From Clostridium manihotivorum (GTDB taxonomy: Bacteria; Bacillota; Clostridia; Clostridiales; Clostridiaceae), in contig NZ_CP025746.1 in NCBI RefSeq assembly GCF_004015185.1, positions 1,441,776-1,505,775 of the forward strand: 64,000 nt of DNA, in the 5' to 3' direction. Made by a program: the position numbers and the translations under genes. The notes beneath the pieces are model-generated. The model was not told the origin of the DNA. It searched no databases and saw only the letters and a list, made by a program, of their open reading frames with translations. Each line of letters starts with the position of its first letter. The stretch's first letter is position 1. This document shows, piece after piece, positions 3,079 to 51,661 of the stretch.

Positions 3079-4132
3079 AATTATTTTAAAAGATATAAAT
3101 TTGGGAGGAACTATGAAAGATAAATCAATTGCAATTCAATGTGATGAAATGACACAAGAAGTAATGAAAGACTTACAACAGACGATGGAAAGTTCATTTT
3201 GTAGAACATCAGAAAGTTTAAGTGAGGAAATTGTACAAAAGTTAGAACCAATCAGTAGTTCTTTAAGCAAGCTTAGAAATGATTTTTCTGATAGCAATGA
3301 AGAGAATATTGAAAAGTTAGATGAGTTAATTGAGGAGATAAGTAATATTTCAAAATCAATAAAAGAAAGTGTAGAACAACAGGTTAAAAGTATATTAATA
3401 GAGCAGGCTCAAGCCATAGAAAAAGTGTTAGTTGATAACACACAAGAGATAAAAGATATAATTGAAGAAAAGGATAATGTTGTTTCAGATAAATTAGGTC
3501 AATTTAAGAAGAATATATTAAATGAAATATTAAAGCTTAATGATAAAATCGATGATAAAACAGTTGTCGAAATAATAAACAAGCTTGAATCAAATTTTAA
3601 TGATAAATTTAATAGTATACAAGAAGAATTGCAATCTGGAAAAGAAGAAATAACAAGTTTAAATATGCAATCTGCAGAGGAAATAGTAAAAAAGATAGAA
3701 AATTCAATAGATAGAAATGTTACAACCAATAGAGAAGATATACTTAATGAGATATCAAAGCTAAATCAGAAAATCGATGATAAAACAGTTATCGAAATAA
3801 TAAACAAGCTTGAATCAAACTTTAGTGATAAATTTAATAGTATGCAAGAAGAATTGAAATCTGGAAAGGAAGAAATAACAAGTTTAAATATGCAATCTGC
3901 AGAGGAAATAGTAAAAAAGATAGAAAATTCAATAGATAAAAATGGGGAAACAAACAAGGAAGACATATTGAACGAGATATCGAAGCTAAATCAGAAAATC
4001 GATGATAAAACAGTTATAGAAATTATAAACAAGCTTGAATCAAGCTTGAATGATAGATTTAATAGTATGCAAGAAGAGATAGAGTGGGGCAATAAATCAT
4101 TTTTTGCTAGAATCTTTGGAAGGAAACGATAG
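3062..4132 (+). CDS. coiled-coil protein with tandem ~80-aa repeats
   Basis: Charged, heptad-like sequence. The block ...ISKLNQKIDDKTVIEIINKLESNF.DKFNSMQEELKSGKEEITSLNMQSAEEIVKKIENSID... is repeated about 2.4 times. The gene is embedded between dynamin-like genes and overlaps its neighbour by a few bases. Confidence 0.6.
   Translation: MQIKNKIILKDINLGGTMKDKSIAIQCDEMTQEVMKDLQQTMESSFCRTSESLSEEIVQKLEPISSSLSKLRNDFSDSNEENIEKLDELIEEISNISKSIKESVEQQVKSILIEQAQAIEKVLVDNTQEIKDIIEEKDNVVSDKLGQFKKNILNEILKLNDKIDDKTVVEIINKLESNFNDKFNSIQEELQSGKEEITSLNMQSAEEIVKKIENSIDRNVTTNREDILNEISKLNQKIDDKTVIEIINKLESNFSDKFNSMQEELKSGKEEITSLNMQSAEEIVKKIENSIDKNGETNKEDILNEISKLNQKIDDKTVIEIINKLESSLNDRFNSMQEEIEWGNKSFFARIFGRKR
3505..4080 (+). 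repeat. ~240-bp tandem direct repeat (about 2.4 copies) inside the coiled-coil gene
   Basis: Near-identical DNA blocks start at ~3505, ~3745 and ~3985. Antisense ORFs 3499..3729, 3766..3966 and 3991..4239 in the track echo the same repeat. Confidence 0.8.
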
Positions 4133-4138
4133 AGTAGG

Positions 4139-5899
4139 ATGAGATATATAGATTTAATTAACAATTCAAAGTTTAATGAATTAATTGAGAGGTATTTAAA
4201 CAATGTTATCGATGGAATAGATGCTAAAGAATATTTCAAGCATTTTACAGAAAACTTAAAGAATCAGGAAATAATTGTTCCAGTATTGGGGATACAAGGT
4301 GCAGGAAAAAGCAGTTTTCTTAATTCTATTTTAATGGATGATAATATTTTGCCTACAGATGTTGATGAAACAACTTGTGTTCCAGTAGAAGTGAGATATG
4401 GAACTAATACAAGTAAAGCTGAAATATATTTTCATGAAAAAGAAAAGGAATTAGTAGATGTAAGCACTTTAGAAAAATATGTACATAATGATTACAATCC
4501 AGCTAATGAATTAAGAGTTTCTAAAATAGTCTTATATAATGAAAGCGAAATTTTAAAGAATAATGTTGTGCTTGTTGATTTACCAGGGGTAGGAAGTTTA
4601 ACTCCAGAAAATCAGAAAACTACATTAGATTATGTAGAAAAGCTTGTTACTGCTATATTTATGATTAGAACAGTTCCACCTATAACAAGAACTGAAAAGA
4701 ATTTTATTAACGCATTATGGCCAAAGCTTAGTAATACTATTTTTGTTCAAAATAAATGGAATGATGAAAGTAATGAAGAGGCAGAGGATGCAAAAGAGCA
4801 TAATCAAAGTGTTTTACAAAGCATTAGCAATTCACATAATGATGAAAGAGATATTAATGTTAACATAGTTAATGTGTATGAGGCAATACAAGGAAAATTT
4901 TTAGATAATGATGAGAATTATAAGAATTCTGGAATATTGAATGTAATAAAAGAGATAAAGAATATTTCTACTGACTATAATAAAGATTTGGAAAGTACTT
5001 TAAACATGAGAGTAGAGGGAATATTGAATAATATAACTTCTATAATTGAAGATAACAAAAGAATATGTAATAACCAAAATAATCAAAATGAATTAGAAAA
5101 AGAGAAAAGAATTATTGAAATAAAGCAGATTCTTAAAGAAAATAAAAAAAATATTAGGCAAATAAAAAACTATGTTTATGATGAGATGGACATTATTATC
5201 AGTAGAGTTCTAAAGGATACAAAAGAAAATATTGAAAATACAAGAACAGAACTCAGAAGAATGATAAATACAGGAATAGTTGATGGTGAACTTCTTTCAA
5301 ATATATATAAAGAAGAAGCTGAAAAGGCAATTAATAATATAATGGAAAATCTGCTAATGAACATGGAAGATCTTACTAATACACTAAATGAAAAACTTGG
5401 ATTAATAAGAATAAAAGGTTTTGATGGAAAATATGAAAATAGATCATCTTTTAATAAAAAGGAAGCATTTAAATTTGAAAAGGCTGTAAATCCAATATTA
5501 AGTATTGGAGGTGGAATAGCAGCAGTTTTTATTGTTGGTGGAGGAATACCTGGAATTATTATAGGTGCTGGAATAGGAATTATATGTTCTATATTTGGAG
5601 GACTAATAAATAAAGGTATCAAAAATGTAAGAGTTAAAAGAACAATAGAAGATTTGGAGCCTATAATAACTCAATTGAAAAAAGACTTAGATAAACAAAT
5701 TGTTGATAGTTTAAGAGGAAAAAGGGACGAGATTGAAAGTGAATTAAATAAACTAAAAGATGATTTAGAAAATGAATGTGATAAGGATATTGAAAAAATA
5801 GAAGAACAATACTCAGGTAAATTTGATGAAAAAAATATTGCAGCGCTAGATATGGATTTAGAAGATGTAAAAAGAATGAAGGAGGCTATAAATGAATAA
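4139..5899 (+). CDS. bacterial dynamin-like GTPase 2 with a membrane paddle
   Basis: G1 GIQGAGKSS, G3 DLPGVGS and G4 NKWND (NKxD). A Gly-rich hydrophobic segment GGGIAAVFIVGGGIPGIIIGAGIGIICSIFGG is present. Confidence 0.75.
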   Translation: MRYIDLINNSKFNELIERYLNNVIDGIDAKEYFKHFTENLKNQEIIVPVLGIQGAGKSSFLNSILMDDNILPTDVDETTCVPVEVRYGTNTSKAEIYFHEKEKELVDVSTLEKYVHNDYNPANELRVSKIVLYNESEILKNNVVLVDLPGVGSLTPENQKTTLDYVEKLVTAIFMIRTVPPITRTEKNFINALWPKLSNTIFVQNKWNDESNEEAEDAKEHNQSVLQSISNSHNDERDINVNIVNVYEAIQGKFLDNDENYKNSGILNVIKEIKNISTDYNKDLESTLNMRVEGILNNITSIIEDNKRICNNQNNQNELEKEKRIIEIKQILKENKKNIRQIKNYVYDEMDIIISRVLKDTKENIENTRTELRRMINTGIVDGELLSNIYKEEAEKAINNIMENLLMNMEDLTNTLNEKLGLIRIKGFDGKYENRSSFNKKEAFKFEKAVNPILSIGGGIAAVFIVGGGIPGIIIGAGIGIICSIFGGLINKGIKNVRVKRTIEDLEPIITQLKKDLDKQIVDSLRGKRDEIESELNKLKDDLENECDKDIEKIEEQYSGKFDEKNIAALDMDLEDVKRMKEAINE

Positions 5900-7673
5900 T
5901 CTTAATAGTTGTATTGAAAGACAAAATAAAATTGATTCTGTTGTGAATAAGGTTAATGATAACAGCATTATAGCAAAAAACCTTCTTATTAAAGAGAGGA
6001 TAATGAATCCTGCTCATTATATTGTAATGCTTGGAGAGACAAGCGCTGGAAAAAGTGCGTTAATAAACAGTGCTTTAAATAATAATAAAATTTTAATTGA
6101 AAATGCAAAACCTACTACTGGAGTAATTACAGAAGTTGTGATTTCTAATAAGAGTGAAGATACATATTTAGCGATAAATAAAGATTCAAGCTTAGAGGAA
6201 TTAGATAAAGAAACTTTTGATGAACTTGTAGTAAATCCTGATGATAATTTGCATAGGCTAAGATATATTGGAAAATCTAAAGATAATATGTACGAGGGAA
6301 TGAGACTTTTTGATACACCTGGATATGGATCTTTGATTAGTTATCACGAAGAAGTATTAAAAGAATTCATACCTGAGAGTGATGTTGTTGTTTATGTGGT
6401 ATCCTACAAATCGGGATTAGGTGATGATGATTTTCAATTTTTAAAATATGTTGGAGAGATAATAAACGATAACGTAGAAGTTGTACTAGCCATCAATATG
6501 TGTCCATCTCAATTAAATTCTAGCAATAAAAGAATAAGTGAAATACATGATGCAGTTAATGATTGTATACATAAAGAAGTTAAAGTATTTCTTGTAGAGA
6601 GTAATAAAGAAAAGAACTTAGATACAAAAGAATTATGGGATTATATTTATAGAAGTGTAAATAGTGAAGAGAAGATAGAAGAACTTTGCAAAACACTATA
6701 TAATTATCAAAATTATATTTTAGATGAGTGTAAAATTCGAGTAACTTCACAAATTGCAAGGATAGAATCAGCAGAAGCAGATTTAGAAGAAAAGCTAAAT
6801 TTAGATAGAGAATTTTTAAATAATAGAAAAGAAATTTTAAAGCTAATAGAAGAGACATTTACTAAAATAGCAGATAAATCTTTAACTTTAATAATCAAAT
6901 CATCAGAAAAAATAAAGAAAGAAACATATGGATTCATAGATGATTCAGATAGATGGAGTAAGAAGGAAGAAACTTTTGCATATATGCAAAATTATCATAT
7001 TCCTAAATTAGTAGAAAAAGAAACAGAAAATTTAATGAATTATATTGAAGATGAAATATGTCAATTAGATCAGAAAATTGAAAACATATTAAATACTGCA
7101 ATTAAAAATTTGCAAACTAAAGTAAGCATAGAAATACCAATATATACAGAAGTGATAGAGAGTATTGTTAAAAAGCATGTTGGAGATGGCATTAAAGAAG
7201 GTTTAAAAGAAATGTTTATGAGTGTAGGTGGAAATGGAGGTGTTGGAGCAGGGGTTGCTAATGCGGCAAGTAAAGGACTGAAAAATTTAGGAAACTTATT
7301 TGGTAAGACCTTTAGTAGAGAAACTCATAATAATTTAAAACATTTTTTAAAAGTGATAAAAGCTACATCAATTAAAGGTATATCAGTGTATTTAGCTGTT
7401 TTTACAGAAGGCATATTCTATTTATATGATGCATTAACATGGCAAGGAAAGTTAAAGGATAGAACAGAGGAAGCAATTTCTGGGTGGAAAATTGATATTG
7501 AAAAATCTGTCATTAAAGAGTTGCAGAATTTAAAAGAAGCAAATGAAGATGAAATAAATGATTTATTTGATGATTTTGCAAGAAGCTTTAATAAAGATGA
7601 GGATGAGTTAGATAGTATTGAGATAGATGAATTAATTAAGTTAAAATTAGAAATTTTAGAGCTATATAAATAA
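5892..7673 (+). CDS. bacterial dynamin-like GTPase 3
   Basis: G1 GETSAGKSA, G3 DTPGYGS and a Gly-rich segment GGNGGVGAGVANAASKG. Its start overlaps the upstream stop, indicating an operon. Confidence 0.75.
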   Translation: MNNLNSCIERQNKIDSVVNKVNDNSIIAKNLLIKERIMNPAHYIVMLGETSAGKSALINSALNNNKILIENAKPTTGVITEVVISNKSEDTYLAINKDSSLEELDKETFDELVVNPDDNLHRLRYIGKSKDNMYEGMRLFDTPGYGSLISYHEEVLKEFIPESDVVVYVVSYKSGLGDDDFQFLKYVGEIINDNVEVVLAINMCPSQLNSSNKRISEIHDAVNDCIHKEVKVFLVESNKEKNLDTKELWDYIYRSVNSEEKIEELCKTLYNYQNYILDECKIRVTSQIARIESAEADLEEKLNLDREFLNNRKEILKLIEETFTKIADKSLTLIIKSSEKIKKETYGFIDDSDRWSKKEETFAYMQNYHIPKLVEKETENLMNYIEDEICQLDQKIENILNTAIKNLQTKVSIEIPIYTEVIESIVKKHVGDGIKEGLKEMFMSVGGNGGVGAGVANAASKGLKNLGNLFGKTFSRETHNNLKHFLKVIKATSIKGISVYLAVFTEGIFYLYDALTWQGKLKDRTEEAISGWKIDIEKSVIKELQNLKEANEDEINDLFDDFARSFNKDEDELDSIEIDELIKLKLEILELYK

Positions 7674-11716: not shown

Positions 11717-13051
11717 ATGGCCAATAGGAAGAACAGAACAAATATTATGTATAAAAATCTTATAATGAAATCATTTATACAAAACAAAAGAAGAGAGCCA
11801 CTATACATAGTTATTAAATTATTAAGAAATATCAATGAAGAAGCTAAACAAGCTTTAAACTTAAATGAAGATGAGGAAAATATATTATTAAATGTTGAAG
11901 AAGAAGTTAAATTTCAGGTATATTTCGATGAGAAAGATGATGAGATATATGCAAGTATAGATGAAAATACAAATTTTATAAAGTTGGTGAGATTTGTTAA
12001 TAACAAATTTGATGAAATGAAGGAAAAAAAGTTGATTACTGGAGATTCGCAAAAAAATTGCTTAATAGGTACAATCAAATTTTTACGAGAAAAGTATGGA
12101 AGTGATTTAAGCGGTTTTCAGAGTAGAGTAAATTTTATGCTTGGTGATATTGTTTCATTTGAATTAACAAATAATCGAATCTTAAGTTCTAAAAAAATTT
12201 CAGGTACATTAACTACATATATATATAATGATATATACATGTATAAAGAAGACTATAAAAGATGTAAATTGGGAAACGTAGATCAAATATTTGAAGATCA
12301 AGATATATTACCTTGTGAAAATGTAGTAAATAGGTTTTTAGATATACTTCTTTTTGATAAAAGGATGCAATTGATTAGTGGTGAAAGGTTGAATTTTTTA
12401 TTAAAAGGTGTTCCTGGAACGGGGAAGTCGACCGCTGTTGATAACTATCTGCATAAAATTGGAGTTGTAAATACCGAAAATATTTGCAGAATAAATGTTC
12501 ATTCAGGTACTAGCAATAGTGATTTGATGCAAGGCATAGGAATAAGTTTAAAAGGAGTAGATATTTTATACACTGAAAAACAAGGTATGGTTCTTAGTTT
12601 TATTTTAAGTGCTATAAAAAATCCAGAACAAAAGTATGCATTAATATTAGAAGAAATACAGGAGAATAGTCTAAATGAAATTTTAGGAGATTTGATATAT
12701 TTGATCGAAGAGAGTAAGAGAGTGGATAATAGTTTTATTATCAAAATTAAAGAGACATTAGGTGATATAGAAACTTATGATCCGTTTAAAATTATTGATA
12801 CTTTATTAGAAAAATATCCATGGTTTTATTATATAAATATGCCTAAGTTAGTTGAAGATAATGATGATAGAAAATTTAATAAACTGATATTACCTAATAA
12901 TTTATTTGTTTTTTGTACTACTAATTACAGTGAAGAAAAAAATATATTAGAGGACAATTTATTTAGAAGATTTGAAGTTATTGATATTTTTCCAGATGAA
13001 GAACAAATAAAAGATAAATATATATATTTCAATAAAACTTCTACATTTTAA
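11717..13051 (+). CDS. McrB-like AAA+ GTPase restriction subunit (LlaJI R1-like); 3' end probably truncated or altered by IS insertion
   Basis: Walker A LLKGVPGTGKST. The ILEEIQENSLNEILGDLIYLIEESKR region resembles the McrB motif IIDEINRxNxSxxFGELxxLIE. The ORF ends inside or at the IS630 element. Confidence 0.65.
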   Translation: MANRKNRTNIMYKNLIMKSFIQNKRREPLYIVIKLLRNINEEAKQALNLNEDEENILLNVEEEVKFQVYFDEKDDEIYASIDENTNFIKLVRFVNNKFDEMKEKKLITGDSQKNCLIGTIKFLREKYGSDLSGFQSRVNFMLGDIVSFELTNNRILSSKKISGTLTTYIYNDIYMYKEDYKRCKLGNVDQIFEDQDILPCENVVNRFLDILLFDKRMQLISGERLNFLLKGVPGTGKSTAVDNYLHKIGVVNTENICRINVHSGTSNSDLMQGIGISLKGVDILYTEKQGMVLSFILSAIKNPEQKYALILEEIQENSLNEILGDLIYLIEESKRVDNSFIIKIKETLGDIETYDPFKIIDTLLEKYPWFYYINMPKLVEDNDDRKFNKLILPNNLFVFCTTNYSEEKNILEDNLFRRFEVIDIFPDEEQIKDKYIYFNKTSTF

Positions 13052-14215
13052 TGCATAGCCTGTCTATGATTTCTGTAGGGGTTTTATTTATATGTGTAAT
13101 AAACCTTTGCACTGCTTCGCTTACCCTAGATAAGGTAGGATAGAATGCATTATTAATTATTCTTGACTTAAGCCACCCCCATAACCCCTCTATCAAATTA
13201 AGTTCTGGACTATATGGTGGTAAAAATACTAACTCTAATCTATTTTTATTCTCATATAAAAAGGGCTCAAGTAGTTTTGCATGATGTATTCTTGCATTAT
13301 CTAGTATCATTACGATTTTACCCGTAGGGTATTGTTCTAGTATACACTTTAAGAATCTTTCAAATACAACTGCATCATACCTCTCATGCTCTTCACAATA
13401 TACTTTTCCTGTACCATAATCCAATATCCCTATTAATTTTACTCCAGCATTTTTACCGTAGGTTGGGATTTTACGACGCTGACCTTTCTTAAACCAAGTT
13501 TTCTGTATAGCTTGATAGTCTCTTATCATGGATTCATCTTCGAACAGAAGATGCGCTAGCTCCCCATTAATTAGTTTTTTTAGGTCTTCAAAAGTTACCT
13601 TAAATTCTTCTTGCTTTTCTTTATCAGCTTTTTTTAGTACGTAGGTTGGTCTTGTATAGCTTAGATTTAATCTATGCAAAATTTCATGGATTCCCCTGTG
13701 ACTCATGGTTATACAAAATGTTTTAATCACCCACTGCCTAATTATTTCAATAGTCCAGTTTTTTCTAGATTCAAACCCGACTTCGTCAGGAGTTTTATTT
13801 GTTACAATTTCAACTATCATGGCTTCTTGGTCTTTACTCAATTTTCTGGGAGCTCCTGTACTATGCTTCATTACTAAGCCTAGCAATCCTTTAGCTTTGT
13901 AGTTTTTAATGTAGTCTCCGACTGTATGTTGATCTAAAGAAACCATTTTAGCAATATCAACATTTGAAGCACCTTCCAAGTGCCTTAATATTACTAGGTA
14001 TCTTTTATACATTCGTACATTTTTAGTTTCCTTCATAATTGACTTTAATTCATTAATTTTTTCATTTAATTCTAATGTATTATTTGAATAAATATTATCC
14101 ATATAAATCACAACCTTTTAAATATTATTGTAATTATTTTGCACTTATTTGCGATTTATATATTTGGTAATATTCTACTATGAATTTTTATTATTGAAAT
14201 TTATATATATAAAAT
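13035..14215 (-). mobile_element. IS630-family insertion sequence (boundaries approximate)
   Basis: Contains a single DDE transposase gene with the IS630 signature LPPYSPELNLIEGLWGW. It lies between the two parts of a McrB-like reading frame. Terminal inverted repeats could not be defined confidently by eye. Confidence 0.5.
13041..14111 (-). CDS. IS630-family DDE transposase
   Basis: 356 aa with an HTH N-terminus and the DDE domain motif ...LDNARIHH...LPPYSPELNLIE... Confidence 0.9.
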   Translation of the reverse strand: MIYMDNIYSNNTLELNEKINELKSIMKETKNVRMYKRYLVILRHLEGASNVDIAKMVSLDQHTVGDYIKNYKAKGLLGLVMKHSTGAPRKLSKDQEAMIVEIVTNKTPDEVGFESRKNWTIEIIRQWVIKTFCITMSHRGIHEILHRLNLSYTRPTYVLKKADKEKQEEFKVTFEDLKKLINGELAHLLFEDESMIRDYQAIQKTWFKKGQRRKIPTYGKNAGVKLIGILDYGTGKVYCEEHERYDAVVFERFLKCILEQYPTGKIVMILDNARIHHAKLLEPFLYENKNRLELVFLPPYSPELNLIEGLWGWLKSRIINNAFYPTLSRVSEAVQRFITHINKTPTEIIDRLCIKM

Positions 14216-14580
14216 TATTTTTTAAAGCTCTGAATGAAGAAATTTCTGTTCAGTATAAAGAATATTTACATCCAGATAGATATCTAATAGGCCATGCAAA
14301 TTGGATGTTTATATATAATGTAAAAGAATTTTATCGAGCATTCATAAAACTAATAAATGAATTTAAAGAAATTAGAGAAATAGGATTTGAAGATTTTAGA
14401 ACAATTATTTGCAATATGAAATTTGAAGAAGAATGGAATTCAGAAGAAAATAAATTCAAAAAGGAATTTGTTAATATAAAGAATTGTTTAAGCAGTGATG
14501 ATACTAATTATTATGAAGTAATAAAAGCCATAATTCAAAAAGCGGAATATGAACTCTTAGAGGAAAGAGAAAATGGATGA
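14149..14580 (+). pseudogene. probable 3' remnant of the IS-split McrB-like gene; only the distal ~120 codons look genic
   Basis: The first ~20 codons are low-complexity IS-end sequence. Its stop overlaps the start of the McrC-like gene (ATGGATGA), which is the classical mcrB-mcrC coupling. Confidence 0.35.
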
Positions 14581-15931
14581 TCTAATTCTAATTAATGAAA
14601 CAGATAACATATATGAGCAACTTACTAATAAAGGAATAAATTATTCGAAATTCAAAGATAAATTAAAGATACTGAATAATACAAAATTAAATAATATGAT
14701 AGGATATTTTAAAATAAATTCAGATGGAAACTTCTATAAAATATGTATTTTGCCAAAAATAATTGATAAAAGAGCACAGAACTTAAGTGAAAATTTTGGT
14801 CAATACATTAATATTACATTAGGATTGATTTTGAAATATAAACTAAATAATTATAAATTGTTAAAAGATAATTATTTGGATTTAATTCATATGAATAGAT
14901 TAGGAAATATAGAAAAATTAGATTATTTATTAGAAAGTAAATATATTCAGGCTTTAAACTATATTGAGTTTTTCTTTAATCAATATAAAAAATATGACTA
15001 TATAGATATAAAGTTTTCAGACTTAATTATAAAAGGGAAAATCGATATACGAAGAAATATATTAGAAGTTAATAAAGCAAGGGTACACCAAATTAGACAA
15101 AAAGAAATTTTATACTCTAAAATAGCTGATATCACTATATCTGTTTTAAAGTATTTTGAGAATTTTAAGATGAAATTAATTCGCCATAATAAAAAGATAC
15201 AGTTAAAACTTCATGATTCAATAAGAACAATAAACCAAAAATTCTTGATAAAAGCTTTTCATTATACAATTGATATGATTCTATCAAATAAAAGTTATAA
15301 GTTATTTAATAAACCAGAGTTAAAACAACTATATTTGAGCCTATTAATATTATTAGATTTGGATGGATATTTTGAGTCGAATATAGGATATATAAATGTC
15401 AATAATGTATGCAAAATGGCAAGTATAGTGATTAATCCTTCTTATATTTTTGAATATTATGTATATGATTATTATATTAACCATACACAAAAATATAAAG
15501 ATATAAAATTTATAAAGATAGATAAGGAAGTAAAATTATCTATAAGATATTTAAAAAAGATTGAAAAGGACTCACTTGAAATTGAAAGTAAAATTGGTGA
15601 ACTAAATGATCAATGGAGAGAAAAGATGAGTAAGCTATGGATATTAACGACATCCGAACCGGATCTAGTTATAAAAGAACTTAGTAATAATGATATTTGG
15701 TATGATACAGTGGTGGATTGTAAGTGGAAGATATTGGATAAAAGTATTGACAAGAACGATTTGGAAAAATTGAAAATAGACTGCAAATCAAGGAATATAA
15801 ATAGAGGAAAACTAGTGTATCCATTGATAAAAACAGCAAAATATAAAAGTGTGGATTCTTTTGAAATAGATGATGAAAGATTTAGCGAAGGTATATTTCG
15901 TCTTACTATAGAAGAGTGTAAAATGATCTAA
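14573..15931 (+). CDS. McrC-like restriction nuclease subunit (PD-(D/E)xK)
   Basis: Partner position after a McrB-like gene. C-terminal EPD...D(T)VVDCKWK is consistent with a PD-(D/E)xK nuclease core. Size is 452 aa. Confidence 0.55.
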   Translation: MDDLILINETDNIYEQLTNKGINYSKFKDKLKILNNTKLNNMIGYFKINSDGNFYKICILPKIIDKRAQNLSENFGQYINITLGLILKYKLNNYKLLKDNYLDLIHMNRLGNIEKLDYLLESKYIQALNYIEFFFNQYKKYDYIDIKFSDLIIKGKIDIRRNILEVNKARVHQIRQKEILYSKIADITISVLKYFENFKMKLIRHNKKIQLKLHDSIRTINQKFLIKAFHYTIDMILSNKSYKLFNKPELKQLYLSLLILLDLDGYFESNIGYINVNNVCKMASIVINPSYIFEYYVYDYYINHTQKYKDIKFIKIDKEVKLSIRYLKKIEKDSLEIESKIGELNDQWREKMSKLWILTTSEPDLVIKELSNNDIWYDTVVDCKWKILDKSIDKNDLEKLKIDCKSRNINRGKLVYPLIKTAKYKSVDSFEIDDERFSEGIFRLTIEECKMI

Positions 15932-16078
15932 TCTGTTATAAATTAATTTGTATCAATAGTCAATTTGCAGTTATAAGCATAAAAGGCTTAATTAAAATTG
16001 TAGTTTTGAATAATATTCGTGCTAATTATAAGAGAATGGTTAATAGCGTTTAATTATATTTAGGTGATAGATTTTTAG

Positions 16079-16640
16079 AGTTTGTGCAAGCTTTGGGAGC
16101 CAGTAATAATCTGACCAGTGAGTAGTGCTGAAGAAGGATTATGGAAGTCTATTGAAGCTTGTACAAACTTTCATATTTGGCTTAAATGAAAATATAAATT
16201 TAAATATGTGTCAGCAATAGGAGAAGCTGGACCAGCTAAGCAATGCTTGTACTATATAAGTGGACCTGCATCGCGGCCAGTATGGCTTCTCTTTTTGCTG
16301 ATTTTGTTTATTGAAAATTGAAGTGATTATAATATGTCTTCAGCAAATTATATCATATGAGGTTATTAGGAAGAACGGGAAGGAAAGCAATAAAAATTAG
16401 AGAACAAAGAGTCAGGTAGGGGAGTCGCAGTATCATCTATACCTACAGTACATACGCTTGTCCATTTGGGCGTAGCCGCTAAACATTCTTTTGTGAAGTG
16501 TACAAGTAAGGACCACATAGGAAGACTTAAGAGCTTGCTTGTAAATAGGACTGGCGTTGACCTGATATAACTACTTAAGAGTTGCCTGTCCTATGTCATT
16601 TTCACAAAAGAGGGTGTTTAGCGAAGTGGACAAGCTACTT
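16079..16640 (+). ncRNA. candidate large structured noncoding RNA (unclassified)
   Basis: An ~850-bp ORF-free gap with locally elevated GC. There is a 15-bp helix 16079-16093/16155-16169 with one G.U. Nested helices 16456-16464/16627-16635 and 16477-16488/16612-16623 carry two U.G wobbles; those positions pair only on the + strand. Confidence 0.35.
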
Positions 16641-16777
16641 TAAAATAGGAAATAATAAATGTGTTCAATTAATATAAAGATCCAATCTGAATAATTTAAT
16701 ATTTTATTTATAAACGTAGAGAAGCAATGAAATAAATTTAAGTTTGTGCTAAAATTAAATTAAAGATTGGAGGAATT

Positions 16778-17674
16778 ATGGCAATGGTAATTAACTTTCC
16801 TAAAAATTTAAGAACAGATAAAAAAGGGATTGAATTTTTAGCTTTTTTGTGGGGAGTAAGTAAGAAAATCTATAAAGGCAGAATTATATGGAATTTGAAG
16901 TATACAAAAAAAATTGAAACCAATCTATTGTCTTTTTTAGGCTTAATTGCAAGAAGGATGGATAGTAGAAATAATATAATTGAAATGGTTATAAGGGATA
17001 GTAATGGAATGACAATAAAGGTATCTGATAATATATTGACTCGTTTATTTAAGAAGTATTCTTCTAATAAAAATAAATTATTAGAATATAATTTTTTAGA
17101 TGAAAACAATTCAAAAGAAGAAATAGAGATACTTTTACTTAAAAATTTAGAAGAGCTAAAATTACTATACTATTCAGACATTAAGATTTTATTAAGTGAA
17201 TTTATTGCCAACATATTTATGCATGCAACTGATAAAGAGGGGTCAATGTCTGGATATATGACAGATAAAGATGATATATTAATAAGTGTATGTAATATTG
17301 GGAGAACAATTAAACAAAATATAGAAAGTGTAAATGAATACAAATTTTTAAATGATAAAGATGCAATTTTGTGGGCTTTAAAAAAGAACAATTCCACAAG
17401 AAATAAAGAAGAAAGTGGAGGTTTAGGATTATATCTTCTTAGAAAATATATTAATAAGATTGATGCAGAAGCATATATTATTTCTGGAAAGTTTTTTATT
17501 AGCCTTTCTGGTGATAACTGCTTTGATGAAAATGATGTTAATAAATTTTATTTCAAGGAAGAATTTGAAATGAAAAGTTTTTTTCCCGGTAATTTGATAA
17601 CTTTAAAGTTTAAGAATGAGAGGAATTATGTGTTTAATAATAAAGTGTATTTACCACGAATAGATTTGTTGTGA
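16778..17674 (+). CDS. GHKL-type ATPase (HATPase_c; SpoIIAB/RsbW-like serine-kinase fold) with unknown N-terminal domain
   Basis: N-box EFIANIFMHA and G2-box ESGGLGLYLLRKYI resemble anti-sigma-factor kinases. It is the first gene of a tight three-gene operon. Confidence 0.55.
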   Translation: MAMVINFPKNLRTDKKGIEFLAFLWGVSKKIYKGRIIWNLKYTKKIETNLLSFLGLIARRMDSRNNIIEMVIRDSNGMTIKVSDNILTRLFKKYSSNKNKLLEYNFLDENNSKEEIEILLLKNLEELKLLYYSDIKILLSEFIANIFMHATDKEGSMSGYMTDKDDILISVCNIGRTIKQNIESVNEYKFLNDKDAILWALKKNNSTRNKEESGGLGLYLLRKYINKIDAEAYIISGKFFISLSGDNCFDENDVNKFYFKEEFEMKSFFPGNLITLKFKNERNYVFNNKVYLPRIDLL

Positions 17675-17691
17675 TTTGGAGGATTTAGCTA

Positions 17692-18957
17692 GTGGATTGT
17701 ATTATCGATTTTTTAAGTGATATTAAACAAAAAGACTTGAGGAGATTAGCACAGAATCAAAGTGAATGTTATGAAGATGCAATAGAGCTATATAAGGAAC
17801 TGTTTATATCGAATTTTTCACAAATTAAAGATGCTTGTAGTGATGAGAAATGTGATATAAAGAGTAAATGTAATGAATTAAGAGAAATAATTTTAGGCAT
17901 TGAAAATGCTGAAATTATAGATTTCTTTGATAAAATGAAATTAGTATATATAAATTGGATCGATGCAAAAATTAAAGATTCCTTGGAAGTATTTACAGAT
18001 ATTATGAATCAATATGAATTATGGTGTTTCTATGATACTGATATAAAAAAAGAAATATTTTTTAAAGGAAGAATAGAAAAAAATATATTAACAAGATGGG
18101 AAATGTTTCATATACCATTTAATAAAAGGTATTTAATTAAAAATCAGAGATATAGCTTAACTGGACAGCCAATAATATATTTAGGTAAATCGATTGTTGA
18201 TATAATTCATGAATTAGATATTAGTGATGAAAACATTGGTGACTTGAAGATATCTTCAATAAGAATTAAAGAAGATTTGAAAGTTTACGATTTAAGAAAT
18301 AATATATATGATTTACTTAATAAGACAGAATTCCTAGAAGTAATAGGTGGAGAAGGTATAGAAAAAAATTATAAACAAACGTTCTTTAAGATACTATTAG
18401 CATCGATATGTAGTTTCGAAAGAAAAAAAGAACATAAAGATTATACTTTTTGTGAGGAGTATGTAATACCACAAATTTTAGCTCAGACATTGAAAAATAA
18501 GGAGTATGATGGAATTATATATTTTTCAACTAAAAAATTTGAAGGTGTAAGTTTTGAAAATACTAAGGAGAATATTTCATTAACTAATAAAACTAAGTAT
18601 AAAGAAAATGTAGCTCTTTTTACTAATTTTAATAAGGATCATGTATATGATGAAGTTCTTTATAGTAAATTGGATATTAGTTCTCCAATAGATTTAACAA
18701 AATCACAGGATTTTAATATCAATCATCTTGATGAGACATGCAAGAAAATTGAATTTACAAAAAATCAAAAGGAAATTAATGATAGTCAAGTAATAGTAAC
18801 TATTTTTAAAAGGGAATTTGAAGGTATAAAAATTAATGATTCAAAATATATTGATAAAGATATGGGAAAAATGCATATATATCATTTATATTGTATTCTA
18901 AATAAAATTCTATGTAAAAGTAGTGAGGTGGTAATTAATGAAAGAAATAATAGTTAG
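17692..18957 (+). CDS. RES-domain protein (putative NAD+-targeting toxin/effector) with extra N- and C-terminal regions
   Basis: NQRYSLTGQPIIYLGKSIVDIIHEL matches the RES consensus R(F/Y)n..G.p.lYla.s...al.E. DGIIYFSTK...NVALF matches the G.l.PS...N.vlF block about 130 aa downstream. GTG start with RBS tggagga. Confidence 0.55.
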   Translation: MDCIIDFLSDIKQKDLRRLAQNQSECYEDAIELYKELFISNFSQIKDACSDEKCDIKSKCNELREIILGIENAEIIDFFDKMKLVYINWIDAKIKDSLEVFTDIMNQYELWCFYDTDIKKEIFFKGRIEKNILTRWEMFHIPFNKRYLIKNQRYSLTGQPIIYLGKSIVDIIHELDISDENIGDLKISSIRIKEDLKVYDLRNNIYDLLNKTEFLEVIGGEGIEKNYKQTFFKILLASICSFERKKEHKDYTFCEEYVIPQILAQTLKNKEYDGIIYFSTKKFEGVSFENTKENISLTNKTKYKENVALFTNFNKDHVYDEVLYSKLDISSPIDLTKSQDFNINHLDETCKKIEFTKNQKEINDSQVIVTIFKREFEGIKINDSKYIDKDMGKMHIYHLYCILNKILCKSSEVVINERNNS

Positions 18958-19249
18958 AGATATACTAAAATCTAATGTGGCTATTAGTAAAGATGACGGT
19001 GATATAGTATTTAATCAAATTAAGACTGAGATAGAGAATAAAAATAGTATTCTTATTGATTTTAAGAATATAGATTTAATAAATACAGCTTTTCTAAATA
19101 ATGCTATAGGCAAGATTTATTTTATCCCAATTGAGAAAAGAATGGATACAACTGTAAGAATAGTCAATTTCCCATTAGAAGTAATGGAGTTGCTTGAAGA
19201 AGTTATTAATACTGCTAAAGAGAAAGCTTCAATAACTGAAGATGCTTAA
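18938..19249 (+). CDS. STAS-like (SpoIIAA / anti-sigma antagonist fold, DUF4325-like) small protein
   Basis: ~100 aa, overlapping the upstream gene. Pattern ...ILIDFKNIDLINTAFLNNAIGKI... is typical of STAS/anti-anti-sigma proteins. Adjacent to a GHKL ATPase. Confidence 0.5.
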   Translation: MKEIIVRDILKSNVAISKDDGDIVFNQIKTEIENKNSILIDFKNIDLINTAFLNNAIGKIYFIPIEKRMDTTVRIVNFPLEVMELLEEVINTAKEKASITEDA

Positions 19250-19794: not shown

Positions 19795-20407
19795 TTCAGC
19801 ATATAATTTTAATTGATAGGAAGAAAAGATCTTCTTAAATGTTGCACTTGAGTTCAGTTTGGTGGTGCAAACTTCGCCTCAAGTCCAAATCGCGTTTTAA
19901 TCCACTGCCTGGATCCTGTATTTGTATGTGAAAAGATAGCTTACACAAGAATAGATCAGGTAGTGTCCATAACTGATGTTATTGAGAATACAATAACAGG
20001 GATAAAGGGCATAGGTGGGCTTCAGACTAGGGGGAAGTATAGGGAAGGGTATCCTAAGTCGCCTTATGTGTAATAGAAGATAAGAAGATCATATATTATA
20101 GTATAAAGGTAGGAGTTAATGTAGCTCCTACCTTTATACTGCTTTAAAAGCATAGCATAAGTCAAAATAAGTATAGCAAATGTTAATACTTTATTAAAAA
20201 TTCGCAAATAGCTTTGGTGATTAATTTAGTTATAATAGCTACTGATTAAAATAAAATAGTATATTGCTTAATAATGTTGACGCACTGCGTCAAGAATTAA
20301 GTTGAGATTGCGATATATAAGAATATAGATATGCATCAATTAATGCATATTAATTTACATAATGGATGTAATACAGTACAATAAGAACAAAATATAGGAG
20401 TTGATGC

Positions 20408-20820
20408 AATGCCGGAATATTACAACCAGAAGTATACAAAAGAAGAGGTTGAAGTAATTTTGAAGAAGATTAAAGAGTGCATCAACGATAATTGCTATAC
20501 TATTTCAATAAATGGCAATAGAAAAAGAACATAAATTTTATTAACGAATATAGATTAAATACTAAAAAGCAGAAAGATATTTTACTTAGTATAGAGGTAA
20601 CAGATTTTTGTCATTCACTAAATAATATAAATCCTGGTTTTGAACATGAGGTTCTTTATGTTTTTTGTCTTCAAAGAGTTTTATTTAACATCTTTGGAGA
20701 AGAGGAATCTATTGATATTTATATTAAATTTAATATTATCGAATATACAGATAAAAAACGAGTAATTACAATTTCATTTCATAAAAGGAACAAGCCAATC
20801 CAGTATTTATTTAAATAATG
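20408..20820 (+). pseudogene. small ORF disrupted by a frameshift in an A-run; candidate toxin partner of the downstream Panacea-domain protein
   Basis: Frame 1 stops at ~20531. The reading frame continues in the -1 frame from ~20520 to 20817 (A5 run at agaaaaagaac). Immediately upstream of a DUF4065 gene. Confidence 0.4.
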
Positions 20821-20849
20821 GGTTGAGGTTTTGGAAGGAGGATTTCACA

Positions 20850-21854
20850 ATGGATATGAAAACAACATTTTGTGAACACTGTAGAAAAGATGTATTATAT
20901 ACAGAAAAAAATGAGCTAATGAATGCAGAGTTAAAAGGTGAGATTTATAACTATTATGGAAAATTAGCAGTTTGTAACGAATGTAATAACGAGATCTTTG
21001 TAAATGACATTAATGATTATAATTTGGAGCAGCTTTATAATGAATTTAGAAAGCAGAATAACATTATTTCTTTAACTAATATAATGGAGATACCTGAAAA
21101 GTACAACATTGGTAAAAGACCTTTATCATTACTTTTAGGTTGGGGAGAGCAGACCTTTAGCCGTTATTATGATGGAGATATGCCTACACAGCAGTACTCA
21201 GCAATTTTGCAGAGAATTTATGATGAGCCTAGTTTTTATCTTTCCATTTTGGAAAGTAATAAAGAGAAACTAAAATCAAAATCAGCTTATGAGAAGAGTA
21301 AATTGGCTACAGATAAACTTTTAGAAACTCAGAATGTTTCAAATGGTGAGAAGATAGATGTTGTTGGAAATTATCTTGTAAGCAAATGTGAAGATATTAC
21401 TCCATTAGCATTGCAAAAACTTTTGTATTATGTTCAGGGATTTTATTATGCTTTTACAAATCAATTTATATTTGAAGAAAACTGCGAAGCCTGGATTCAT
21501 GGACCAGTATACAGGGATATATATTTCAAATATAAAGAATATAAATTTGATCCAATGGGAATTTCTGAAGTTATAGATAATTTTAACTTAACAGTATCTG
21601 AGAAAGCTATTATTGATAGTGTGATTAAAAATTTAAGTTGCTATAGTGGAAAGGTTTTGGAAGCATTTACCCATGCTGAAACACCATGGTTAGAAACTCG
21701 TGGAGATTTGCCTATAGCTGCATCTTCAGATAGACAAATTGAAAAAAGGCTAATTGGAGATTATTTTTCAGCAGTTAAAGAGAAGACTAATATGTTAAAC
21801 CCATCTGATATCGGTGTTTATAGCAAAAAAATGTTTGAACAAATTTCTATGTAG
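20850..21854 (+). CDS. Panacea/DUF4065 (SocA-like) antitoxin-domain protein with N-terminal zinc ribbon
   Basis: C-terminal ...LQKLLYYVQGFYYAF...WIHGPVY... is the conserved core of DUF4065. N-terminal CEHC...CNEC zinc ribbon. RBS ggaaggagg before ATG 20850. Confidence 0.6.
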   Translation: MDMKTTFCEHCRKDVLYTEKNELMNAELKGEIYNYYGKLAVCNECNNEIFVNDINDYNLEQLYNEFRKQNNIISLTNIMEIPEKYNIGKRPLSLLLGWGEQTFSRYYDGDMPTQQYSAILQRIYDEPSFYLSILESNKEKLKSKSAYEKSKLATDKLLETQNVSNGEKIDVVGNYLVSKCEDITPLALQKLLYYVQGFYYAFTNQFIFEENCEAWIHGPVYRDIYFKYKEYKFDPMGISEVIDNFNLTVSEKAIIDSVIKNLSCYSGKVLEAFTHAETPWLETRGDLPIAASSDRQIEKRLIGDYFSAVKEKTNMLNPSDIGVYSKKMFEQISM

Positions 21855-21995
21855 TATAACTTTAAAATAATAACAGGAAAGAGCTCAATTTTAATATTTA
21901 AATTAAGATTGAGCTCTATTTTAATTAGAGAAAAACTCAACCTTAATATTAAATATTAGGGCTGAGTTTCTTCTAAATTAGTATGGAGTTTAAAA

Positions 21996-24548: not shown

Positions 24549-24746
24549 AAGCAAGGTAATCTGAAATTTAAGTGCACTCCAAATATTGGGGGAGCATCCT
24601 TAGATTTGTGTAAATCAAATCTAAGGATGCTCCCTAAGGAGTAGAATTAAACTAAGTGAAAGCAACTTATAGTTTATGTGGCAGAAAACTTATTAAATCA
24701 TCCATTAAAGCAGGCTTATCTAAGTTTTCAGGAACTTTAATGAATC

Positions 24747-28152: not shown

Positions 28153-28581
28153 TTTAATCCCCCTTATTTAATGCCTAATTTTCCATATGAATTATTTGTA
28201 AAATTATATCATATATGGATTGAGAACAGGGCTATAAATTAAAATAATTCACAGTTTCTTAATGGTTTTCTACTGAATTATTTGCTTAGTATAAGACTTA
28301 TGAAGAATATAGAATGCCGTGGCATAAGGTATATATTGACTGAGAGAATATCCAGCATTAAAATGATGATATGTTTATTTAGGTAACATTTTTACTGGAG
28401 GTGATAATTATATAAGGTAAGTCTATATAGTTGGTTTAAATAAGAAGGTTAATTACTTAATTTCAACAAGATAATTTAACAGAGGCATACAACAGTTTTA
28501 AAACACCTACTAAAACCCACTAAAATATATTGGAATATTGTTAGTTTTATGTTGTCATAATATGTGTAAAGAGGTGATAGC

Positions 28582-29044
28582 ATGAAGTATTATACAATTG
28601 GTCAATTCTCAAAATTAATGGGAAAAAGTATTCAAACTTTAAGATTGTGGGATAATGAAGGAAAGTTAAAACCACATCATATAACAGAAGGTGGACACCG
28701 TTATTATTCTGAACAACAAATTAATCAAGTTTTGCAAGTGCCACTTGTTAAGAGAACTAAAAAAGTAATTGGATATTGTAGAGTATCAAGTAATAAACAA
28801 AAAGATGATTTAGCAAGACAGGTTGCTGAGATTTGGGTTTGAAATAATAGAAAATCTATGTAATAAGTATGGGACTGACATCGAAATCATAGATAACACT
28901 GAAAAAACAGAAGAACAGGAATTAGTTGAGGATTTAATTCAAATTGTTACAGTTTTTAGTTGTAGGTTGCAAGGCAAAAGAGCCAATAAAGCAAAGAAAA
29001 TGATTAAGGAGCTGTTAGAGAATGATACTGGCGAAGAAAGTTAG
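28582..29044 (+). pseudogene. tnpA: IS607-type tnpA (MerR-HTH + serine recombinase) with internal deletion and frameshift
   Basis: MerR-like HTH MKYYTIGQFSKLMGKSIQTLRLW, catalytic-Ser motif IGYCRVSSNKQKDDLARQ, then a frame break. The RFGFEII...ELVEDLIQ tail resumes in another frame, with ~50 aa of recombinase core missing. Confidence 0.7.
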
Positions 29045-30167
29045 AATTATTCCGAATATAGAGCAAGAACAAAAATTATGGCAGTCTGTTGGTACTGCAA
29101 GATATATTTATAATTGGACACTTGCAAGACAAGAAGAAAATCACAAAAATGGTGGCAAGTTTATAAAAGATGGAGATTTAAGAAAAGAATTAACTATTTT
29201 AAAGAAATCAGAACTTAACTGGCTTAATGAAGTATCTAATAATGTAGCAAAACAGGCTGTAAAAGATGGTTGTAGTGCTTATAAAAATTTCTTTAAAGGG
29301 TTAGCTGATAAACCAAGATTTAAGAGCAGAAGAAAAAGCAAACCTTCATTCTATAATGATACAGATAAACTAAAAGTTAAAGAAAATTTAGTATTAATTG
29401 AAAAAGTAGGTTGGATTAAAACAGTAGAGCAAATACCTACAGATATTAAATATATTAATCCAAGAATAAGTTTTGACGGTAAGTTTTGGTATATATCTAT
29501 AGGCATAGAAAAAGAAGAAACTATATCAGAAAATACAGATATATCAATAGGTGTGGATTTAGGATTAAAAGATTTAGCAATAGTTTCAAATATAGATAAA
29601 CCATTTAAAAATATTAATAAAGCTAAAGAAGTGAAAAGACTAAAAAAGAAGTTAAAAAGAAAGCAGAAACAAGTTTCAAGAAAATATGAAGATGGAAAAA
29701 TTCGAATAGGAAAGGAAGGTGAAAACCGTTATAAATTTACTAAAACTAATAATATTAAAAAACTCGAAAGAGAATTAAAACTTATTCAAAGAAGGCTTTC
29801 AAATATACGTTTAAATCATATTCATCAAACAACAACTGCAATAGTGAAAACCAAGCCAAGCAGAATAGTTGTTGAAGATTTAAATGTAAAGGGTATGCTT
29901 AAAAATAAACACTTATCAAAGGTTATACAAGAACAATGTTTCCATAAGTTTATTAGTATCTTAGAATATAAGAGTAAATTTAATGGCATTGAATTTGTAA
30001 AAGCAGATAGGTTTTATCCTTCAAGCAAAACTTGTTCTTGTTGTGGAGCAATAAAGAAAGATTTAAAACTTAAAGACAGAGTTTTTGTTTGTCCATCATG
30101 TAATGCTCGGATGGATAGGGACAAAAATGCGTCAATAAATCTTTCAAGGTATAAAAAATCAGCATAA
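29022..30167 (+). CDS. tnpB: TnpB (IS605 OrfB-family RNA-guided nuclease, RuvC + zinc finger), apparently intact
   Basis: 381 aa; ...IGVDLGLKDLA... (RuvC-I D), ...VVEDLNVKGM... (RuvC-II E), CSCCG...CPSCN zinc finger, ...MDRDKNASINL (RuvC-III D). Confidence 0.85.
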   Translation: MILAKKVRIIPNIEQEQKLWQSVGTARYIYNWTLARQEENHKNGGKFIKDGDLRKELTILKKSELNWLNEVSNNVAKQAVKDGCSAYKNFFKGLADKPRFKSRRKSKPSFYNDTDKLKVKENLVLIEKVGWIKTVEQIPTDIKYINPRISFDGKFWYISIGIEKEETISENTDISIGVDLGLKDLAIVSNIDKPFKNINKAKEVKRLKKKLKRKQKQVSRKYEDGKIRIGKEGENRYKFTKTNNIKKLERELKLIQRRLSNIRLNHIHQTTTAIVKTKPSRIVVEDLNVKGMLKNKHLSKVIQEQCFHKFISILEYKSKFNGIEFVKADRFYPSSKTCSCCGAIKKDLKLKDRVFVCPSCNARMDRDKNASINLSRYKKSA

Positions 30168-30326
30168 TATCACTAACAAGATAGTGCTGATATGTACTGT
30201 GCGTTACGCAGGATTTTAAGCCTTTGGAGCAACATATCAAACTGGAGTAGTCTTATGACAAAACAGGTTGCGTTGAATAAGGAATAAATCTCTAAACATT
30301 AGATTTTAGTAGATTTTATGTAACGG
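30168..30326 (+). ncRNA. predicted omega (right-end) RNA scaffold of TnpB
   Basis: ~160-nt segment between the tnpB stop and the element end, conserved with only a few substitutions in copy B (51490..51648). Established TnpB biology places the guide scaffold here. Confidence 0.5.
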
Positions 30327-30348
30327 CTAAATTTAAATAAGGATAACT

Positions 30349-35571: not shown

Positions 35572-36171
35572 GGATGCATTATATAAATATGTACCACTTC
35601 AATCTGATAGCTATTTTCAAGACTCATCTGGTTTCAGAGAGGAGAACTTGAAAATAGATAGATCAATAAAACTACCATTAATAATAAAAATGATTGTGGT
35701 ATTTTTCAAGATTATAGAGCTGGAATATCTATAATTCATATTAAATTTTGGCTATATTTAATTTCAACACAGTGCTTTAACAGAATCTAAAGTTTAGGGC
35801 AATAAGGTACTGTAGGTTAATAAAATAAAGTATTTCACAGTATAGGGTGAAATATTATAGTTTGTACTAATAAGAAGCAATTTATTATAATTAAGTCATA
35901 CAAGCATAAAGCAATTCAATGAGAAATTGAAGATACGAATTCAATTATTGAGCTAAATATCTTTGAAAGATTAAGGCCCTAAATAGAATCGACTTAAATA
36001 TTAATTAAATAGTCTCTCGGAATTATGAGTGATTATTATAGTCCTATCGGGGTAGCGTACATTAAAAAGTGAATATTATCCAAAGATTTACAGAGAATGT
36101 GGAATATTAATAAAAATGAGCATAACTAATAGACATAGCTGCCGCTATGTTTTAAAATAATTATGTATTGA

Positions 36172-49223: not shown

Positions 49224-49904
49224 TTCTATTCCTCCTATTGTCCTCATAGCTACTATTTTAATTTTCTTAAAATTAAGATATACAGGTCTTATAAAAGATG
49301 TATGGATGTTAAAGAGTAAAACTGTACTGTTCGAACGTAGTGAGTTTACAGTTTTAGCCGTGGAATATGAAAAAATCATATTAATTCTTTGTGTAAGCTC
49401 ATCTAAGCATCGGAATACTAACCACTTAATTAACATGGTAGTTTAACAGAGCCGAAATTAAAAGTATACATGAGGTTTATTTATAATTTAATGATATTAT
49501 AGTCCATTAAATTTCAATACTCAATGGTATAAAAAGGAACCCATAGGGGGTATATTATTTTAATAATATTTTTGAAGATAGTCCTTGGAACTAATTAGTG
49601 ACAATATAAATTAATGGTAAATTATAGATAGTTCAATTTGTATATAAAGTTCAAAGGTTCATATGATAAGGTTATTGACGTAAAAAAACAAATTTTATAA
49701 AGTAAGCAAATTTTGTTAGGAGTTGAGATAAATCAATTAGTTTCTTCAAAATAGATATCCATTGATGTATAATTTATAAATAGATATTTAGTTTTAAATT
49801 GGGGAAGGCATACAACAGTTTTAAAACACCTACTAAAACCCACTAAAATATATTGGAATATTGTTAGTTTTATGTTGTCATAATATGTGTAAAGAGGTGA
49901 TAGC

Positions 49905-51489: not shown

Positions 51490-51661
51490 TATCACTAACA
51501 AGATAGTGCTGATATGTACTGTGCGTTACGCAGGATTTTAAGCCTTTGGAGCAACATATCAAACTGGAGTAGTCTTATGACAAAACAGGTTGCGTTGAAT
51601 AAGGAATAAATCTCTAAATATTAGATTTTAGTAGATTTTATGTAACGGAATAATTTAATAT

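Follow-up and report, generated by a model that had tools for sequence, protein, structure and literature searches.

An 846-nt spacer of Clostridium manihotivorum DNA (15932-16777 of the 64,000-nt stretch of contig NZ_CP025746.1 analysed here, hereafter the window), located in a defence-island-like stretch with an McrBC-like cassette on one side and a GHKL/DUF4325 cassette on the other, contains three independent stem-loop modules, termed D1 (16077-16171), D2 (16210-16302) and D3 (16456-16635), and not one ~600-nt fold. We read this spacer as a strain-specific junction that carries orphan hairpins acting at the transcript level, of terminator or small-RNA type, together with one unexplained element, D3; the reading is tentative, and we regard it as possible but short of probable. 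Both genes flanking the spacer, which lies on a 6.36-Mb contig, are 100% identical to NCBI proteins of this species.

A sliding 160-nt z-score scan placed all excess structure of the spacer in these three modules. Their minimum free energies (MFE, in kcal/mol throughout), compared with those of 200 dinucleotide shuffles per module, gave z-scores of -4.1 for D1, -4.5 for D2 and -6.2 for D3, with 0/200 shuffles folding as well. For windows covering 16240-16559 the z-score ranged from -0.6 to +1.6 (plus strand) and from -0.2 to +2.1 (minus strand); because the modules are separated by spacer without excess structure, they do not make up a single ~600-nt fold. Helix counts gave a similar picture: contiguous helices of at least 9 bp, G.U pairs allowed, numbered 28 as against 29 +/- 6 in shuffles, the sole excess by helix length alone was the 20-pair helix of D1 (above all 60 shuffles), and complementarity between modules was limited to 9 bp at 16126-16134/16337-16345, a chance-level match. 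An earlier note on this DNA, made from its letters, had proposed one large RNA with nested long-range helices. Every helix that it described was recovered where it had been placed, and a repeat finder lists them independently; the nested helices, however, all lie inside the 180-nt D3, D1 and D2 are independent of them, and ~150 nt between D2 and D3 show no structure in excess of shuffles.

Compared with the other hairpins of the window, the modules are not very unusual. After regression on composition, D2 ranked 11th and D1 16th among its 100-nt hairpin loci, and D3 ranked 11th among its 200-nt loci, yet with the lowest raw MFE. Most of the higher-ranking loci are found where genes end or within short spacers and, by position and form and not from individual examination, look like predicted intrinsic terminators (for example 20101-20140, 21876-21975 and 24573-24645).

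The spacer is also set apart by composition and by its lack of coding potential. GC content reaches 38.3% over the core (16079-16640) compared with 30.2% for the whole window, with values of 0.38-0.43 in 200-nt windows, a peak of 43-44% in 160-200-nt windows and about 20-26% in the flanking genes; other long spacers in the window show comparable GC bumps. The longest spacer open reading frame (ORF) is 50 aa long, on the minus strand and without a Shine-Dalgarno sequence, so that the ORF-free, GC-raised region of the earlier note stands as described. A concatenated six-frame translation of 16040-16690, built with stop codons as X, returned nothing at E <= 10 from 5.8 billion proteins, and stop codons are dense in all six frames. 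A decayed protein-coding gene, which the earlier note had named among the outcomes that would speak against its RNA, was therefore not encountered and is rejected. Small proteins and type I toxins were rejected as well, since none of the short spacer ORFs has a ribosome-binding site of the Shine-Dalgarno type; tandem repeats of the kind expected of a type III toxin-antitoxin system are absent from the spacer, and a retron was rejected for want of a reverse transcriptase gene (no such Pfam domain among ~50 ORFs of at least 90 aa across the window).

To place the modules among known RNAs, we searched the whole window with Rfam 15 at gathering thresholds, which assigned no family to the spacer (the two matches, both RAGATH-18, lie elsewhere). 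Permissive scans (E <= 10) of 15800-16900, 16440-16650 and 16050-16460 gave nothing below E 0.06, the covariance models of ROOL, GOLLD, OLE, HEARO and raiA found no match in the spacer even at E <= 10, and ARAGORN detected no tRNA or tmRNA. The Rfam scan that the earlier note had suggested, for these five families and all others, thus ended with no family at threshold, and its view that the spacer is not a tmRNA, RNase P RNA, 6S RNA or group II intron was borne out by Rfam and ARAGORN.

Could the plus strand of the spacer nevertheless encode one large structured non-coding RNA (~560 nt) of a new type, comparable in kind to ROOL, GOLLD, OLE or raiA? We consider this very improbable. Such an RNA would fit a 601-nt core that folds at -175.3 kcal/mol (z -6.3; minus strand -135.8, z -5.8), a long GC-enriched spacer in an AT-rich genome and the lack of a coding signal. 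Like ROOL, GOLLD, OLE, raiA and HEARO, which Firmicutes carry, often close to mobile or defence genes, the spacer is non-coding and GC-enriched, and the palindromic loops of D3 could in principle self-associate, as has been reported for ROOL, GOLLD and OLE (PMC12286853). Unlike them, it is not one continuous fold and has no family of homologues: 16304-16455 is without excess structure, no significant helix joins the modules, neither an Rfam match nor a homologue in the collections searched was found, and D1 and D2 rank alongside the other strong gene-end hairpins of the window. What survives of the large structured RNA is a region that is non-coding, GC-enriched and significantly structured, but which is modular and orphan, with no family assignable. 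It resembles the orphan candidates of GC/intergenic region (GC/IGR) pipelines (DIMPL; Breaker laboratory) in being a long, GC-enriched, ORF-free spacer of an AT-rich Firmicute with predicted structure and no Rfam assignment, such spacers in AT-rich genomes being the signature of those pipelines (PMC8723152, PMC11109978). In these discovery surveys (PMC8723152, PMC8632094, PMC11109978) motif status requires homologues with covariation, and the spacer stays at the unassigned level.

D1 and D2 are the first hairpins past the upstream operon, since the z-score scan found no other between the upstream stop codon (15931) and D1. The basal helix of D1 (16079-16093/16155-16169) comprises 15 bp with one G.U pair and extends to 20 contiguous pairs (16077-16096/16152-16171) when G.U is allowed; the MFE of the module is -30.9 (z -4.1) for the plus strand, against -20.4 (z -2.9) for the minus strand. 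A U-rich tract follows it (UUUCAUAUUUGG / UUUCAUAUUU). At the base of D2, CAGCAA/AGGAGAAGC is paired with GCUUCUC/UUUUUGCUG and followed by AUUUUGUUUAUU, giving a GC-rich lower stem of 8-9 bp (GGAGAAGC/GCUUCUC) and then UUUUUG...AUUUUGUUU. D2 is about equally stable on both strands (-41.0, z -4.5, plus; -38.6, z -5.0, minus), and a terminator scan flags 16275-16287 with its T-run inside it. Both modules resemble the intrinsic terminators and 3'-untranslated region (UTR) hairpins of Firmicutes operons, as stable stems followed by U-rich tracts whose composition-corrected stability lies within the range of the other strong hairpins of the window, and the A-tract/stem/U-tract symmetry of D2 recalls bidirectional terminators. 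Upstream of D1, an extended -10-like sequence, TGATAGATT, was read from the sequence; it is absent from a scan for consensus promoters and has no good -35 partner. If used, it would set the start of transcription at ~16079-16081, the first base of D1.

D3 is the strongest of the three modules, a Y-shaped element whose MFE is -69.5 (z -6.2) for the plus and -57.0 (z -4.9) for the minus strand. Both of its arms present the same 23-nt loop motif, GACCnnAUAnnAnnACUUAAGAG, on stems that are themselves dissimilar (the flanking stems of the 48-nt units are just 4/12 and 5/13 identical). As the CUUAAG core of the motif is self-complementary, pairing between loops is possible. The motif has no further occurrence in the window, and as a meaningful feature of D3 it is suggestive only. 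The GHKL start codon, in the same orientation, follows 142 nt after the end of D3. Promoter-like sites at its 3' edge and downstream constitute weak evidence, since the number found equals that expected by chance. Coordinates of the modules, their parts and the surrounding genes are collected below.

Table 1. Features of the spacer and of its surroundings (positions in the window)
Feature	Coordinates	Strand	Remarks
Extended -10-like sequence	16065-16073	+	TGATAGATT
D1	16077-16171	+	irregular hairpin, 91-95 nt; basal helix and apical sub-stem 16106-16112/16136-16142
Linker D1-D2	16172-16209	+	AU-rich, no excess structure
D2	16210-16302	either	hairpin, 93 nt; A-tract, stem, U-tract
Spacer D2-D3	16304-16455	+	purine-rich, no excess structure; contains run AGGAAGAACGGGAAGGAAAG
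D3	16456-16635	+	Y-shaped, 180 nt; P1, mini-hairpin, bulged P3, two arms
D3 P1	16456-16467/16624-16635	+	12 bp; extends the 16456-16464/16627-16635 helix of the earlier note
D3 mini-hairpin	16469-16477	+	GGC-GUA-GCC
D3 P3	16478-16498/16600-16622	+	bulged, ~21 bp; continues the 16477-16488/16612-16623 helix of the earlier note
D3 arm A stem	16501-16510/16534-16543	+	
D3 arm A loop	16511-16533	+	motif copy 1, GACCACAUAGGAAGACUUAAGAG; contains self-complementary CUUAAG
D3 arm B stem	16545-16555/16584-16594	+	
D3 arm B loop	16559-16581	+	motif copy 2, GACCUGAUAUAACUACUUAAGAG; 17/23 identical to copy 1
Promoter-like TGGACA-18-AATAAT	16627-16656	+	overlaps 3' arm of P1; candidate GHKL operon promoter
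Promoter-like ATGAAA-17-TAAAAT	16727-16755	+	with TG; candidate GHKL operon promoter
Dynamin-like GTPase genes (three)	568-7673		two adjacent, first and second separated by a 356-aa gene; Pfam scan
DNA methylase			after the dynamin-like genes in island order
AAA_5 (McrB-like) gene	ends at 13051		in island stretch 11717-14580; 3' end overlaps opposite-strand transposase gene
IS630-type DDE_3 transposase	13041-14111	opposite to AAA_5 gene	11-nt end-to-end overlap
ORF, 143 aa	14149-14580		no Pfam match
ORF, 452 aa	14573-15931		"McrC-like" gene of the earlier note; no Pfam match; stop at 15931
GHKL ATPase gene	16778-17674		first of three-gene operon
Three-gene operon	16778-19249		GHKL ATPase (~300 aa), 421-aa protein, DUF4325 STAS-like (~100 aa)
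Helix-turn-helix regulator, then SocA/Panacea antitoxin-like gene			downstream of three-gene operon

Which strand carries these structures is less easily read from the folds than the earlier note had supposed. It had taken the wobble pairs of the helices, which would be mismatches on the other strand, as a sign of a plus-strand transcript, an argument that proved weak: the coding flanks are biased in the same way, the composition-normalised z-scores are similar on both strands, and with parameters for single-stranded DNA (ssDNA) D3 is equally exceptional (z -7.0 and -6.0 on the two strands). Windows of flanking coding DNA likewise fold 10-13 kcal/mol better on the plus than on the minus strand (e.g. 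-22.6 vs -9.2 at 16800-16959), and the difference in stability is therefore attributed to G+U composition. The MFE structures hold 17 G.U pairs on the plus and 8 on the minus strand, where composition alone predicts a ratio of ~1.45, and among interior wobbles in long helices six favour the plus strand and one A.C mismatch favours the minus strand (estimated p roughly 0.06-0.15). We accordingly rejected wobbles and MFE as decisive for strand, given the plus bias of flanking coding DNA and a G.U excess near the composition expectation. The plus strand is nonetheless the more natural one, though not demonstrated, because both flanking operons lie on it.

A minus-strand alternative for D3 came from the permissive scans. 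The model of SSRC30 (RF02525), a Streptococcus small RNA described in S. pyogenes as derived from the 3' UTR of a housekeeping locus (PMC3675131, PMC6431027), aligns over its full length (1-151) to 16452-16638 on the minus strand, with 22.5 bits and E 0.061 when D3 alone is the search space. In overall topology the D3 minus strand does match SSRC30: both have an outer helix and a second, long one, a pair of inner hairpins and, on the 3' side, a small hairpin. The score, however, is far under the gathering cut-off of 100 bits, the match is missing from the permissive search of the 1.1-kb region, and the reverse complement of D3 scores 22.9 bits against a covariance model built from D3, so that ~22 bits is what shared topology alone yields. 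The genomic setting differs too, there being no minus-strand gene upstream as the 3'-UTR origin of SSRC30 would call for, and the minus strand folds less well than the plus strand (-57.0 vs -69.5). Membership of D3 in SSRC30 was rejected on the score and its control, and a related minus-strand small RNA is the least credible of the specific explanations, barely worth entertaining.

Relatives of the spacer were sought through its flanking genes and through its own sequence. The nearest non-self relative of the GHKL protein is 68% identical, McrC-like homologues of the 452-aa upstream protein are at most 40% identical, and, judged by these protein relatives, the databases contain no closely related island. 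The GHKL/~420-aa/DUF4325 cassette forms a compact three-gene module in six unrelated Clostridia contexts, including C. perfringens (loci L001, L004, L005, L095, L097 and L098), with upstream spacers of 145-371 nt (18-30% GC in the three inspected). In the first three contexts nothing resembled the element in sequence, and the covariance model built from D3 detected no D3-like fold in the six cassette loci or in two loci of McrC homologues. Downstream of the latter, locus L008 has a gene-free, AT-rich and unrelated tail of 914 nt, and L009-L011 have a 178-nt spacer and then a Macro-domain gene, the element being absent. Both the idea that the element belongs to the GHKL cassette (no co-occurrence in six contexts) and that it belongs to the McrBC-like cassette (unrelated regions downstream of the homologues) were rejected.

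Direct searches were equally unproductive. Blastn in distant mode returned one 50-nt AT-rich chance match from plasmids and nothing from phages, and neither blastn nor the D3 covariance model with filters off found a further copy in the window. Patterns, exact or degenerate, that were drawn from D1, D2, the junction of D3 and its twin-loop motif gave nothing, or chance matches in coding DNA and tandem repeats, in viral contigs, species genomes (185,579) and metagenomes, scans that demand 17-24 conserved specified bases and would let diverged homologues escape; the species-genome collection did not return the window's own verbatim pattern, the source genome being absent or masked there, which limits these negatives. 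The earlier note had proposed comparison with related genomes as a check and a lack of homologues as evidence against its RNA, and it is this outcome that was obtained, provisionally, with searches insensitive to diverged copies. By these comparisons the element looks like a strain-specific orphan, and, provisionally, it would not be counted as a conserved structured non-coding RNA class, for which homologues with covariation are needed.

These comparisons bear directly on the possibility that the spacer is a long cis-acting 5' leader, a riboregulator or attenuator of the GHKL/DUF4325 operon. Its orientation and the proximity of D3 to the start codon would suit such a role, as would a terminator-like D2 that could be opposed by the alternative pairings 16126-16142/16329-16345 and 16283-16292/16418-16427. 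These pairings are at chance level, however, the candidate promoters lie inside the 3' edge of D3 or downstream of it, and the homologous cassettes manage with short spacers, AT-rich in the three inspected and in none of the six with a D3-like fold. We judge a leader to be rather unlikely.

A DNA or ssDNA feature, or its relic, is somewhat more plausible, though still unlikely in our estimate. Under this explanation the modules would be hairpin ends of IS200/IS605-type insertion sequences (IS), an sso/oriT-like origin, palindromes like those of miniature inverted-repeat transposable elements (MITEs), or what is left of the end of a mobile element or of an earlier cassette, and the hairpins would function, or would once have functioned, as DNA. 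The spacer lies at the junction of two horizontally acquired cassettes, in an island that also contains one element of the IS630 type and two of the IS605 type; in another genome (L004), Y1 transposase fragments lie on the flanks of the same GHKL cassette; the element is strain-specific; and D3 is as strong with DNA parameters on both strands. Set against this are the lack of any repeat of the element elsewhere in the window, by blastn and covariance model, and of any transposase, relaxase or Rep gene adjacent to the spacer in Pfam scans of the window ORFs. Furthermore, there are no terminal inverted repeats or significant target duplications (the 9-nt AGTTTGTGC, directly repeated at 16079 and 16741, is no more than chance would give), and a branched Y with non-palindromic arms is more typical of RNA.

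We return to the reading that we prefer, in which the modules would work within transcripts of the plus strand, that of both flanking operons; transcription, its strand, termination and the roles of the loops are what we infer from the structures. D1 and D2 would most likely serve the upstream operon as tandem long-stem intrinsic terminators or by stabilising its 3' end. If TGATAGATT fires, D1 and D2 could instead delimit a ~230-nt small RNA (16079 to ~16310) made up of a hairpin at the 5' end, an AU-rich linker and a terminator. D3 would be a separate Y-shaped element upstream of the candidate GHKL promoters, and its twin loops would suit the binding of a dimeric factor or a loop-loop contact through the palindromic CUUAAG.

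Several observations weigh against this preferred reading. Typical intrinsic terminators have loops of 3-8 nt, whereas the interiors of D1 and D2 measure 50-57 nt; they would also stand two in tandem, beside a D3 without a U-tract, and a GC content of 38% sustained across 560 nt exceeds what isolated terminators usually need. D3 has no convincing promoter of its own either. A 17/23 direct repeat such as that of its loops arose by chance in 7/1000 shuffles of D3 and in 57/300 shuffles of the whole spacer. The folds favour neither strand decisively, and the diverged homologues that pattern scans would miss bear on the claim of strain specificity.

A bolder proposal is that D3, alone or with D1 and D2, founds an undescribed structured RNA of defence islands, whose twin CUUAAG loops would mediate self-association or the binding of a dimeric partner and which would modulate or insulate the GHKL/STAS-like cassette; we consider it a long shot. 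Whatever probability these explanations leave falls to the spacer having no function at all.

The surroundings of the spacer add observations of their own. The order of the island genes is given in Table 1. Within the 356-aa gene between the first and second dynamin-family genes there are 2.5 copies of a 225-nt unit, 89% identical (3506-4077). It is possible that the IS630-type insertion has broken up the McrBC-like system. The middle protein of the GHKL cassette (~410-440 aa across contexts) has a weak DUF4276-like match, and PADLOC (2.0) matched no model to the genes adjoining the spacer, the GHKL cassette included. Besides L004, with its Y1 transposase fragments, there are contexts in which the cassette adjoins SIR2-like, SMC-like or JetD-like genes, and it looks like an uncharacterised mobile system of defence type. 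A toxin-antitoxin-type gene lies near it, 20823-21854, encoding a 343-aa protein with an MqsA-antitoxin-like region and a SocA/Panacea domain.

Other structured loci were noted elsewhere in the window. The two RAGATH-18 matches, identical and with 68.6 bits each (30221-30284 and 51543-51606, plus strand), lie just 3' of IS605-type TnpB genes, one of them intact (29022-30167) and the other split into ORFs 50345-50872 and 50809-51489. The corresponding IS605-type elements (28500-30339 and 49823-51662) are 98.7% identical over at least 1.84 kb, and the RAGATH-18 copies look like the TnpB guide (omega) RNA regions of a duplicated insertion sequence. The spacer 19795-20822, especially 19876-20140 on the plus strand, has no ORF above 47 aa, a GC bump to 0.43 and a 601-nt fold at z -4.3; 19876-20140 comprises a branched structured segment, then a perfect 19-bp terminator hairpin at ~20101-20140, and has no Rfam match. 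This spacer may hold another small RNA. Finally, 36121-36320 (inside 35572-36742) folds strongly whichever strand is taken (about -66 kcal/mol per 200 nt), with GC up to 50% in 100 nt, downstream of a PRD/Mga-type regulator gene (34060-35571) and with overlapping, doubtful predicted ORFs only.

If our preferred, ordinary reading is true, the spacer is one more hairpin-rich junction between defence cassettes, and it cautions against calling a large RNA in AT-rich Clostridia from GC bumps and nested helices alone. Should D3 instead prove to be a genuine RNA and conserved, a defence island would have gained a non-coding part. The three-gene GHKL/~420-aa/DUF4325 cassette, moving between Clostridia, is perhaps the more rewarding target.

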